From: Stegostoma tigrinum
Lineage: Eukaryota
DNA: 64,000 bases
Assembly: GCF_030684315.1 (NCBI RefSeq)
Contig: NC_081391.1
Coordinates: 13,679,342 to 13,743,341, forward strand
Reading direction: 5' to 3'
The position numbers and the translations under genes were made by a program. A model generated the notes under the pieces. That model was not told where the DNA came from. It saw only the letters and a program-made list of their open reading frames with translations, and did no database searches. This document shows positions 2,851-8,037 of the stretch, in pieces. Position 1 is the stretch's first letter. Each line of letters opens with the position of its first letter.

Positions 2851-5800
2851 ATGGCCTCCCAGATCAGTCAGAACTATCACCAGGATTGTGAAGCTGCTGT
2901 CAACAAGCAGATCAATGTGGAGCTCACTGCCTCCTATCTCTATCAGTCTTTGGTGAGTGGTGTCTCTGTTGGGTGAAACATACTTCTGTTCTGTTGAAGT
3001 AACCTCTTCCCCTTGGATGTAATTAAGTTGTCTATCTTCTAGACTGAGTTTTGTGGCTCCTACCTCTTTCTCAATGCAGGATGAGTGTGATGTTACTGTA
3101 ACAATAGTTTGGTGTCTAATGTTACTCTAACTTGGGTCCCAGTTGGTTGTCAGTGAGATGTGGAGGGTGGAGTGTTCTTGTAGTTACTTGCCTGTCCCAT
3201 GATGGTGCTGTGACTGGTGGTAATTATCGCTTCCTGTGACTGTTTGTTTGAAACTTGAGGGAACAAAATTAAAAATGAATTGGGACTCACCATTGTGGGA
3301 ACGGAAGCACCATCGGCTAGTCACTGCTCTTCTTTTCCTCCTTGTATCCTTGCTTGTATTTGAATTTTGTGGTGATCCCAACTTAACATCTCAAATAATC
3401 TTGATTTCCTATTGCAATCAGCTTAGAATAGGCTTGTTCTAGCCCTGCAGAGCTGGGCTGAGAAGTGGCAAATGGAGTTTAATGCAGACAAGTGTGAGGT
3501 GATGCACTTTGGTAGGAGTAACCAGCAGGCAAAGCACGAGGCTAATGGTAAGATTCTTAGTAATGTAGATGAGGAGAGAGATCTCGGTGTCCACGTAAAC
3601 AGGTCCTTGAAAGTTGCCATCCAGGTTGACAGGGCGGTTAAGAAGGCAGTGTTTTCTCTTTGATTAATAGAGGCATTGAGTTCTGGAACCAAGAGGTTAT
3701 GGTGAAGCTGTACCAAACTCTGGTGTGGCTGCACTTGTAGTATTGTATACAGTTCTGGTCACTGCATTATAAGGATGTGGAAGCTTTGGCAAGAGTGCAG
3801 AGGAGGTTTACTAGGATGTTGCCTGGTATCGAGGGAAGCTCTTATGAGGAAAGACTGAGGGACTTGAGGCTGTCTTCATTGGTGAGAAGGTTGAGAGTTG
3901 ACTTAATTGAAACATATAATATTCTGAGGGTTGGAAAGGGAAATCCTCTTTCTGCGGACGGTGAGCATGAGGGGGCATAGCTGTAAATTGAGGGATGATA
4001 GATATAGGACAGATGTCTGAGGTAGTTTCTTTACTCAGTAGTAAGGGAATGGAATGCTTTGCCTGTGACGGTAGTAGATTTGCCAACTTTAGGTACATTT
4101 AAGTCGTCATTGGACAAGCATATGGACGTACAGGGAATAGTCTAGGTTAGATGGGCTTGAGATCAGTATGACAAGTTGACACAACATCTAGGGCCTGTAC
4201 TGTGCTGTTATGTTCTAGTTTCAGATTAAACTGGGTGAGGTTGTGACTGGTATCTGATCAAGCAGATCTCCATTTGAGATCTACTTTGCTTTTTTTCATA
4301 CTCATGAGGTGGGTGTGGGCTGTCTGTATATCAGTGTTGGAGCTTTTCCAAGGCATGGCACTGCCGTGGGGCTGAGAATGTGCGGAGGGTACTGACCCAG
4401 TGAATATGGAAAAAATAGCTTATTCCTGTTGTATTTGGCCTGACTCTAAACTAACTAGCCCCTCTTTCCCCAGGTGGTTGGGTGCCTGTGCCCTTCCAAG
4501 GGGTAGAATGTGTTTAGAAGGTGTTAGAAGTAACCTTAGTGAGTGTTGCCGGGTGCTCTCTGGGCTTGTGCTTGTCAGCAGGAAGTCCTCTCATGATGAG
4601 GATCAAGTCCCTGTCAGCCCCACTTTGGGAGGTGGCAACAGCTTTCATTGAGCCAGCAGTTCAGTTTTAATCGCTGACCCATGTTCCTAACACAACTTGG
4701 AAGCATGTCCCAAGAGTAAAATCTCCACTATTCTACATCTTCTAACTGCCCATTTAAATGGGCAATGATAAATTGTGCTTGTGTTTGCATTTGACAATTA
4801 AAGCAACTTTTTTCAGCAGGATTCCCAAGAATGTGTGTCTTAGTAGCTGCTTCCAATAGCAGACCTGGTAAACCTGAATACATTGAATTGTGAACATCCT
4901 GGTTTAGAAATCTACAGGACTTTGCCTGTTGGATTAAGTCAACAGTAGCATTTCCACGTTACTGTTTTAATAAGTGATGTTGTCTAGAGAGTAGGTGATC
5001 TGCAGGTCACTGTCATATTTGTCATGTGATCAGTTTGTTTTGTCAATCAGTGTTTCATGTGTAATGGTACAAGTTGCTAGCAGTCTCAGTACAGCTGTTT
5101 TAGATGCAGCAGTAAACTGTATCTAGAACAATCCAAAGACTGTCCCGAGGCAGGCTTTCCTTGGCAGATTCTTGGTGCCCATGTCCTTCATTCATCCCTT
5201 CCCCCTCACCCCAGCCACCCCACTACTGCAGCCCTTGTCAAACTAATAGATACAGTGCATCCAATTGCATTGATCCTGACTAAGCAGAAAATGTGCTCCT
5301 TCCTAGCTGTTAGTTGCAGTGTCTGGGATCTGTTTTCTGGCCTTTGCCAAAGGAGCAATAGCGTGCCCTGCAGCTGTTCTATTGGTGCACATCCTGCATT
5401 CCAGCTTCTGGCATTTCTTGAAACCCTATTCAATCAGTAATTTATCCCATTTCTGGTGGAGGTTAATCAGTAAAAACATCAATTCACACTTGTTCTCACC
5501 CAATGCTGTGCCAGACCCACTGAGCAATTTGCCAGGAGTTTCAAACCAAAATAAAACACATGGTGTTTACAGCTTACCTGGAGGAAGCTGGGATTGTTTT
5601 GATTTTTCCAATTCAACAGGAACTGCTCAAAACTGGGTTCTGAATTGTTAATGCATCAGGTACTTAACAGCTTATTGTCAGTCTGATTTTTAGAATGCTC
5701 AAGTAGCCCTGGAGCTCTGAACTAAAATTGGCCCGTGACTTGTTAATGGGCTTTACCTTGATCTCCCTTCCAGATGTCCTACTTTGACCGGGATGATGTT

Positions 5801-8037
5801 GCCCTCCCCCATGTCTCCCGCTTCTTCAAACATCAGTCCCAGGAGAAGCGGGAACATGCAGAGAAGCTGCTGAACTTCCAGAATCAGCGTGGAGGCCGGG
5901 TCCTCCTCCAGGATGTGAAGGTTGGAGTTGGGTGGGGTGGGGGTTGGGATGGTAATGGCTGCTCTTGTGGTGTGGTTTCAAGTCAGTGACAAGGTTTTCA
6001 TTTGAGTCAAAACTTTGTTCGGCCTGTTTGATCTCCTTTTTGAAGCCAGTGTAGAAAGAAGCCCTTTGGCCCACCATGTCTTTGCTGACCCCACAAACAC
6101 TAAAGCACATTAATCCCATTTACCTTCCCTTGGTCCACAGGCCACTGTCCTGGCACTATATACTTGTCCAGCTGGACCTTAAACTGATCTGGAGTAGCTG
6201 ACTCCACCACCATCCAACCCTTTATGTGGTTCATCTCATATTTCTAACCTCCCCCTCGGAGGAGGGTGAAGAGAACGTTTCCTCCAATCCCCTCTAACCT
6301 GCTTACTCCACAAACCTGGTTTCTCTCTGGTCTTGCTGTCTGCTATGGGGAAGACATTCCATCAACTGGCCACTCTCTATTCTTCAATAGTTACATCAGG
6401 TCACTCCCTCAGCCGTTCCTGCTCCACAGAAAATCCCAGCCGATCTAACCTCCAATCAATGGATCTTGGGCAACAGCCTGGGCAACCTCACCAGCTTCCC
6501 CCTGCAGTGCCATCCTGTCCTTGTGACTGGTGAGGCCCAAGAGGGAATAATGTGGTGACTAGAAGAACAAACTGTGACAAGACTGGCCCCCTTCCTGTTC
6601 CACCACACCCAACTAATAGAGGTTGCTTGCCCTCTGTCACTGTTACACCCTGTTGACCTTGTCTGAACTTTGAGGGATCTATGGTTGTGGGCCTTTCTTC
6701 ACTGTTAGCAGCACAACACACTTTGCAAACACCTCGCTGTCCCTTGGATGAATTAAATAGCCGTGATGTTTCTGATCATCCTGCTCAGGCATGTATGAAG
6801 CCACCAGCACAAGTGGTACTTGAACCTTGGCCTTGTCAGCCAGAGACAGGGGCACTACCACTGTACCATGACAGCATTTAGGATTCACTTGTGAATATCC
6901 TCGCAATTCCATCAGATGGACCCTGATGCAAATCTTGTCATTATCCCCCACAATGACCTGTTATTCAACTTCCTCCTTCAGATCAAGGACCGACAGGCAA
7001 GGTGAAAGCAATTCTGAAGGAACTGTGCTCCAGGGCTGCCTCAGGGGCTAGCAGTGTTCTCAGTGCTAGGGACACAGGTCTGGATCTGGCCTCTGGTGAG
7101 GGACTGGTGTTTACATGTCCTCCCCATGTCTGCATTGGTGTCCTCATAGGATAAGGGGATTGGCCATCTGAAATGCAGGGTTACAGGAATAGGGTGGGAG
7201 AATGACGAGTTGGGATCCTCTTCAGAGCAGTTACAGACTGATCCACGTTGTAAAGATTCTGAAGCTTAACTGTCCAACTTTCCTTCCTCCAGAAGCCAGA
7301 GAGGGATGAGTGGGGTAACAGCCTGCAGGCAATGCAGGTTGCCCTGGATCTGGAGAAGAATGTGAACCAGAGTTTGTTGGATCTACACCAAGTCGCCACA
7401 GCCCAGACTGACCCTCATGTAAGCTTCACCTCCTCATTGACTTCACTGCTAGGCCCTCAGGGCAACACGTTCATTGGTTGGTCTTTTGTGGATTAGAAAT
7501 TCAGTTAGACTTTGTTTTTGTGCAGATGACATGGATCACTTCAGATCCATAGTGATTACAAAATCATTGCTGAGCAGTTGAGTCCAAGTGTGTATTTTAA
7601 CTTGTAAACCTGTGGGGAGGACTGAGGGGATATTGGTCACTGAATTCTCATTCAGGACCACTGCAGTGGAATGACTTTTATCCGTCACAAGTTAACTCTG
7701 CTCCAGTAAATAAACAGCAAGATGAAACTGCTAAAAAGCAGTTGTCCTCTTTGCACAATTTCTCCAGGCGTTGGCTCGAGACATCCCTGACCATCTCCCT
7801 CCATATGCATGTTTTTAGTGGGAATTCTGAAGTTGTCTTGGATAGTGTTAATGTACCAAGTGTCATATTCCTCTGTTGCAGCTGTGTGACTTCCTGGAGA
7901 CCCACTATTTGGATGAGGAGGTGAGGATCATCAAGCAACTCGGGGACTACATCACCAACCTGAAGCGCCTGGGAGCCCCTGAGAATGGGATGGGAGAGTA
8001 CCTGTTTGACAGGCTCTCCCTGGAGGACAGCAGTTAG
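2851..8037 (+). CDS. Ferritin subunit (heavy/middle-chain-like with L-type residues), copy 1 (type A), intact; exons 2851-2952, 5774-5920, 7293-7418, 7882-8037; 176 aa
   Basis: Spliced translation [180 protein letters not shown] introns lie at the conserved vertebrate ferritin positions; TATA box at 2757 and AATAAA at 8165. Confidence 0.93.
3445..4218 (+). mobile_element. 5'-truncated CR1 LINE (HER1-like) in intron 1 of copy 1
   Basis: CR1 ORF2 C-terminal motifs ([31 protein letters not shown]); 3' tail gggcctgtactgtgctgttatgttcta. Confidence 0.9.

Follow-up and report, generated by a model that had tools for sequence, protein, structure and literature searches.

The analysed window, a stretch of 64,000 nucleotides at C50:13.68-13.74 Mb in the 3.2 Gb genome of the shark Stegostoma tigrinum, carries ferritin genes with two changes in the ferroxidase site, lysine replacing glutamate at position 62 (E62K) and glutamate replacing glutamine at position 141 (Q141E). 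As a sequence feature, this pair of changes is real and well supported. We propose that the first gene of the window is a unit of a shark array without iron-responsive element (IRE) and that it likely encodes a ferroxidase-impaired, light-chain-like (L-like) subunit for oocytes, an interpretation for which belief and doubt are about balanced. Residues follow the numbering of the mature human heavy (H) chain FTH1, which is obtained by adding 3 to the array residue; the alignment to H chains places the two substitutions at 62 and 141, in agreement with a preliminary description of the window.

Re-reading of the sequence gave AAG for codon 62 of the first gene (5846-5848) and GAG for codon 141 (7918-7920), and K62 and E141 recur in 7/7 exon 2s and 7/7 exon 4s of the window, all as described before. 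The proposed fixation of both residues in a massively expanded family extends well beyond the window, which lies within an array of ~155 tandem copies covering ~1.4 Mb (C50 12.99 to 14.40 Mb), here called the K62 array. The 504 kb read of its ~1.42 Mb contain 59 units, 53 of them with four exons and 33 without detected lesion. Codon 62 is AAG in 55 of the 57 exon 2s read, AAA in one and deleted in one, so that 56 encode lysine, and codon 141 is GAG in 56/56 exon 4s. A pattern for the E141 context of exon 4 has 158 matches genome-wide (96 of the 100 matches listed fall in the K62 array), and the corresponding Q141 pattern has a single match, outside the array; the K62 context of exon 2 is matched 110 times and its version with a non-A first base not once in the genome. 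When checked, the pattern matches on C27 and C36 did not match ferritin.

The ferroxidase ligand set E27, Y34, E62, H65, E107 and Q141 is incomplete in all 33 intact copies due to K62 and E141. E27, Y34 and E107 are kept in 33/33, as proposed earlier, as are H118, D131 and E134, and H65 is present in 32/33. Lysine thus stands in place of the glutamate that binds both irons, which bears out the earlier suggestion of a lost bridging ligand; because lysine is unable to bridge two irons, the E62K chain is very probably ferroxidase-impaired. As stated in two reviews, E62 is among the ligands of the ferritin iron sites and the double change E62K+H65G abolishes activity (PMC6929972, PMC10114856). The combination of K62 with E107, an L-chain feature, is found in 33/33 intact copies. 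K62 would fill the site and form a salt bridge with E107, and for this reason a homopolymer would be expected to oxidise iron slowly. The fold is predicted to be normal: the protein matches the animal ferritin family PF00210 with 123.8 bits, and a model of P0010, a near-identical database protein, has a predicted local distance difference test (pLDDT) score of 89.7 and a template modelling score of 0.96 to frog middle (M) chain. This model was built from 106 sequences; a single-sequence model was unusable (pLDDT 42). One could also suppose that activity is usefully kept in a remodelled site, in which the carboxylate of E141 replaces position 62. The invariance of E27, Y34 and E107, the near invariance of H65 and the fixation of E141 after K62 in carpet sharks are consistent with such a site. 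However, K62 occurs together with Q141 in four other shark genera, true L chains have both K62 and E141 and mammalian L is inactive, as far as the accessible part of the source tells (PMC11719527), E61Q is found in seven of the exon 2s read and in 4/33 intact copies, and H65R occurs in Heptranchias and in one Cetorhinus cluster of the K62 class, so we regard a remodelled active site as quite improbable.

Seven ferritin genes with all four exons lie in the window, followed by an eighth of which exon 1 is included; they share the plus strand and are spaced by ~8.7 kb. The K62-class gene has three phase-0 introns. The coordinates given in the preliminary description, 5774..8037, take in exons 2-4 of the first gene; exon 1 is found before them, at 2851-2952. 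An open frame with ATG is retained in 3/7 complete copies (1, 4 and 7), whereas copies 2, 3, 5 and 6 are broken. H65, which had been described as usually kept, is present in 5/7 window copies, with Q in copy 4 and P in copy 6. The features are as follows.

2620..2781, plus strand: proximal promoter of copy 1, upstream of the ATG (sequence, nhmmer match with E 0.002, motif counts)
2626-2630 and 2660-2664, 2671-2676, 2757-2762, plus strand: inverted CCAAT boxes, CAGCTG E-box and TATAAA in the copy 1 promoter (sequence)
2851..2952, plus strand: copy 1 exon 1 with ATG, K22, E27 (2920-2922) and Y34 (2941-2943); IRE absent upstream
3445..4221, plus strand: interspersed repeat fragment in intron 1 of copy 1, also carried by other units (self-BLAST, very high contig depth), which we take to be like a long interspersed nuclear element
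5774..5920, plus strand: copy 1 exon 2 with H57, Q60, E61 (5843-5845), K62 (5846-5848) and H65 (5855-5857)
7293..7418, plus strand: copy 1 exon 3 with E107 (7353-7355) and H118; splice joints supported by a contig
7882..8037, plus strand: copy 1 exon 4 with D131, E134, E140, E141 (7918-7920), L173 and stop
8165..8170, plus strand: AATAAA, likely poly(A) signal of copy 1 (sequence)
12491..16647, plus strand: copy 2, K62/E141; premature TAA in exon 2
21870..26437, plus strand: copy 3, K62/E141; 2-nt deletion in exon 2
29593..34597, plus strand: copy 4, open frame, K62/E141, H65Q; acceptor of exon 2 is AAG
38577..42730, plus strand: copy 5, K62/E141; a short inversion at the 5' end of exon 1 has removed the start codon
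47182..51327, plus strand: copy 6, K62/E141, with E61V and H65P; exons 2 and 3 contain stops and the acceptor of exon 4 is lost
54985..60146, plus strand: copy 7, K62/E141, intact
63791..63892, plus strand: exon 1 of copy 8, the remainder of which lies beyond the window end

A second ferritin array with an intact site lies on the same chromosome, 5.5 Mb from the K62 array (C50:19.95-21.56 Mb), and comprises at least 150 copies in both orientations. Its exon 4 pattern has 150 exact matches, of which 99 of the 100 matches listed lie there; this number is a floor because 4/10 copies read would escape the pattern. E27, Y34, E62, H65, E107 and Q141 are kept in 10/10 copies read. Together with vertebrate M chains, these proteins, annotated as ferritin heavy or higher subunit-like, are the closest other class (~72% identity); they share with the K62 class the four exons, K22, T125 and L173, but differ in having E62 and Q141. 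The Rfam model IRE_I, for which detection at FTH1 and one single C50 gene served as positive control, gave no match in the window, nor in seven loci of the arrays that were scanned. The promoters of the two arrays are homologous: in a search of 144 kb with a profile built from 10 intact-array promoters, the 8 window promoters were the top-ranking matches and neither IRE gene was matched. Of 56 upstream regions of the K62 array, at least two CCAAT boxes occur in 50, a CAGCTG E-box in 37 and a TATA box in the expected position in 35, counts that have no shuffle control. Motifs of this CCAAT, E-box and TATA type are linked to oocyte genes. The K62 chains are the more acidic ones, with a net charge mostly of -10 to -13 compared with -5 to -9. 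The intact-site array with its homologous promoter makes the heteropolymer partner suggested earlier plausible, and partnership with this array in an oocyte iron store is likely the simplest role of the E62K chain. The common promoter would lead to co-expression of both arrays in oocytes, where K62 and intact chains may co-assemble into 24-mers; in such a mixed shell, oxidation of Fe(II) would fall to the intact chain, and the K62 chain with its higher acidity would provide stability and storage, while output would be set by gene number and not by IRE control. According to the accessible part of the source, efficient iron loading needs both oxidation by H chains and nucleation by L chains (PMC11719527).

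Transcription is indicated by processed copies and by one contig. A copy on C2 that has no introns runs across all three junctions, has 79% identity to the K62 class and contains K62 and E141; for the intact class, a retrocopy is found on C11. Altogether two processed pseudogenes of the K62 class and one of the intact class were located (L091:1127-1653 on C2; L092:1239-1396 and L095:965-1448 on C11). Heritable retrocopies point to transcription in the germline or early embryo. In run X4, a 614-base contig joins exons 2-3 and 3-4 at GT-AG borders as well as exons 1-2, and it matches the window at 5846-5848 with the K62 codon kept. Runs X1-X3 gave mostly an IRE-type transcript and pieces of exon 4 and the 3' untranslated region and were not counted as evidence. 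For the Greenland shark, the accessible part of a 2024 preprint reports 155 copies labelled 'FTL' and 179 labelled 'FTH1' in the annotation, clusters that are old and syntenic with white shark, and ovary-specific expression of the largest one (bioRxiv 10.1101/2024.09.09.611499).

With regard to origin, K62 on an otherwise M-like chain was found in Stegostoma, Rhincodon, two Chiloscyllium species, Hemiscyllium, Mustelus, Cetorhinus, Carcharodon and Heptranchias. This class forms one clade (98/99) from four shark orders; it was not among the best 120 matches listed for Pristiophorus, Heterodontus, Scyliorhinus, rays and chimaera, from which we do not claim absence. The closest database proteins to the window gene are from carpet sharks, with exon 2 identity of up to 98%. 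The possibility that K62 is common in ordinary H or M chains, raised before, is not borne out by the alignment (0/12 H, 0/17 M, 0/8 IRE-type and 0/12 intact-array rows; outside it, P0050 and P0103 are single exceptions), and K62 is present in 16/16 L rows. In trees calculated without 14 or 4 site columns, the K62 class stands beside the intact shark array (90/83, 95/85, 89/84); a quick all-column tree of 62 rows left it unplaced. P0220 was dropped after the 83-row tree due to its long branch, 24 rows were thinned for the later trees and the approximately unbiased (AU) tests, and fused or partial gene models were excluded. At fourfold sites, the K62 class diverges least from the intact array (0.30), more from the IRE gene (0.45) and most from FTH1 (0.70). 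Promoter homology and fourfold divergence, as two independent lines, and the trees without site columns favour a sister relation within sharks, and we consider it fairly probable that the two arrays are sisters and that the K62 class is of shark origin, converging on tetrapod L. The K62 class likely split from the ancestral line of the intact array within the cartilaginous fishes, and E141 would have been added later in carpet sharks.

Several observations weigh against our interpretation as a ferroxidase-impaired, L-like oocyte subunit. No published work on single E62K with H65 kept was found, and the conserved H65 and E27 may allow residual metal binding. The L-type nucleation glutamates are absent, as the preliminary description had noted: position 57 is D in 21 and H in 12 of the 33 intact copies and position 60 is Q in 33/33, which would count against a classical L role; both positions also vary in non-mammalian L chains. 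In the array, 20/53 four-exon copies are broken, and private variants of nine broken copies of the same length give a ratio of 0.44 for nonsynonymous to synonymous polymorphism (pN/pS), also below 1, so that the contrast to intact copies is only modest. The all-column tree of 83 rows joins the K62 class with L (94/81), and the AU tests reject none of its groupings with the intact array (p 0.48), with L (0.33), with both (0.32) or with H (0.10). Single window promoters match with E-values of 0.002-0.37, 3/8 at 0.1 or above and thus weakly when taken singly, and the promoter and fourfold lines would both be compatible with a clade of K62 class, intact array and L. One chimaera gene falls with the intact array in the tree, which may put the split of the two classes near the shark-bony fish split. 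Run X4 is from another organism and its nature as RNA is only guessed, and the ovary datum comes from another species with the classes not separated.

The broken copies, together with recent large duplications (identical matches 127 kb apart), would also suit a neutrally expanding and decaying family in which K62 and E141 were fixed via one defective founder. In contrast, pN/pS is 0.245 among the 33 intact copies, with 117/176 positions invariant, open frames persist in four shark orders, promoter identity is ~0.9 at -230 to -130 compared with 0.65 near the ATG, and a spliced contig and a retrocopy exist. We therefore give neutral decay hardly any credence. Two further observations concern the array itself. 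Higher-order repeats occupy its centre at C50:13.2-14.2 Mb, with identical exon matches for example at 13685115 and 13812143; some of the copies are hence either very recent or sensitive to assembly. At the right end (C50:14.19-14.30 Mb), a sub-lineage of seven copies, four of them intact, carries E61Q, a further loss at an iron-transit residue.

The hybrid site is not unique, because the oocyte L chain of Xenopus (P0479, FRIL_XENLA, named as oocyte form) has the same E27, Y34, K62, H65, E107 and E141, and marsupial proteins named FTHL17 have K62; the site is thus not a new H/L hybrid. The Xenopus chain differs by K61 and by E57/E60, and no comparable amplification appears in the match lists; this chain and related L chains of amphibians, reptiles and coelacanth show 60-68% identity to the K62 class. 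Mammalian FTL shares K62, E107, E141 and R172-L173, but is without E27 and mostly without H65, has the nucleation glutamates and shows 60-64% identity. Most accessory motifs that had been called L-like are non-diagnostic: SQI occurs in 7/17 and AAVN in 5/17 M-type rows, TDPH in 11/12 and RL in 4/12 intact-array rows. L37 alone leans to L (6/9 K62-class and 14/16 L rows; lamprey too).

These likenesses could mean that the K62 class is a true orthologue of coelacanth and tetrapod L, with E62K arising once before the shark-bony fish split, lost in ray-finned fish and amplified in sharks. The all-column tree and the AU values for groupings with L are in line with this, as are K62, L37 and L173 common to both, the nearly identical Xenopus site and the presence on C50 of RUVBL2 at 4 Mb and BAX at 12 Mb from the array, two genes that, with GYS1, are neighbours of human FTL. 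The genes directly bordering the array are a Sec7 gene at one end and SET-domain and HSPBP1 genes at the opposite end. Glycogen synthase matches were found only on C20 and C33 in a search of reduced sensitivity (two genes, at C20:18.98-19.04 Mb and C33:46.0 Mb, one of them 0.9 Mb from FTH1). However, the grouping with L is gone once 4 or 14 site columns are dropped, and promoter and silent sites tie the class to the shark intact array. E141 is restricted within the class to carpet sharks (Heptranchias, Mustelus, Cetorhinus and Carcharodon have Q141) and thus has an origin separate from that in tetrapod L. A single transition suffices for E62K, and the change is recurrent, being present for instance in 11/11 proteins of a marsupial cluster that nests among M-type chains. 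Mammalian FTL carries an IRE whereas the K62 class has none. We consider L orthology unlikely, though worth keeping in view; of the two options offered by the preliminary description, the convergent one is favoured over an early L lineage.

A third possibility is that the K62 chain acts alone in germ cells like FTHL17, as a non-oxidising chain for buffering or delivery of Fe(II) or in a role other than storage. The missing nucleation glutamates and IRE, the multicopy state and the germline evidence are compatible with this, and K22 replaces the Arg by which human H binds NCOA4 (Arg23; PMC11719527, accessible part) in 33/33 intact copies, which is a lead only. FTHL17 of mammals is multicopy and germline-expressed, lacks ferroxidase activity and is partly nuclear, as far as the accessible parts of the sources state, and the marsupial cluster, mostly named FTHL17, shares E27, K62 and E107. 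On the other hand, K22 is present in the intact array too, the channel residues for iron entry (three-fold channel H118/C130/D131/E134) are invariant in 33/33, and the common promoter points to expression alongside an active chain. Co-assembly is usual among ferritin chains of animals, which also counts against a solo role; we consider such a role improbable. Identity with FTHL17 was rejected: eutherian FTHL17 is intronless, H-derived and X-linked, whereas the K62 class has three phase-0 introns, no tree link to FTHL17 and a position outside the H clade. The marsupial proteins P0220 and P0452-P0461 have K62 and D22, and P0220 nests among M-type chains (99/83, long branch) and not with H, so the name FTHL17 may not reflect orthology there.

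Beyond the two arrays, an IRE-bearing FTH1 adjoins a bestrophin gene on C20; this gene being FTH1 and the K62 class lying outside the vertebrate H clade, the window gene was ruled out as FTH1 orthologue. Four single ferritin genes adjoin the second array, one with an IRE. At C50:21.59-21.60 Mb (plus strand; L048:8489-8758 and L018:7168-8910) lies an intron-containing ferritin with intact site and an Arg/Leu/Gly-rich N-terminal extension of ~60 residues, conserved in Scyliorhinus (P0242) and Heterodontus (end of P0001), which resembles a targeting presequence and is possibly an independent mitochondrial ferritin. The single gene at C50:21.66-21.67 Mb (plus strand; L107:6129 to L108:7220) has K27, L62, N65, Q107 and N141, groups with teleost 'lower subunit' proteins (85/94) and may represent a second, older ferroxidase-null lineage common to sharks and bony fish. 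Another at C50:21.57-21.58 Mb (minus strand; L096:7250-7350 to L097:7730) has K61, E62, Q65, N131 and K140 and no IRE; trees leave it unplaced and gave no clear support for it as L orthologue. P0034, a shark-like IRE-type ferritin labelled Aeromonas veronii, is probably contamination of a bacterial record.

The amplification of shark ferritins and its link to the ovary are already reported: the accessible part of the Greenland shark preprint describes hundreds of clustered copies with an ovary link for the largest cluster, and site residues, IRE status or a two-class model were not found in that part (bioRxiv 10.1101/2024.09.09.611499). The split into intact and K62 classes, the IRE loss, the shared promoter and the order of K62 before E141 were absent from the literature searched, outside which most subscription journals fall. 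Taken further, and tentatively, sharks may have re-invented the H/L division for the egg with two sister arrays of more than 100 IRE-less genes each, one ferroxidase-active and the other E62K, whose common promoter would co-express them to form a heteropolymeric iron store of maternal origin. In that case, E62K has at least three origins, in sarcopterygian L, the shark array and the marsupial FTHL17-like proteins, all germline-linked.

Database names such as 'heavy' and 'middle' obscure the loss of the site. A scheme of two classes, one active and one predicted to be inactive, both outside iron-responsive control, would give the odd, hundreds-strong ferritin clusters of sharks an explanation that can be tested. 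The stepwise series, in which E62K stands alone in four genera and is followed by Q141E in carpet sharks, with E27 and H65 kept, bears on how and why light chains evolve; if L orthology were true instead, the L chain would predate the shark-bony fish split.

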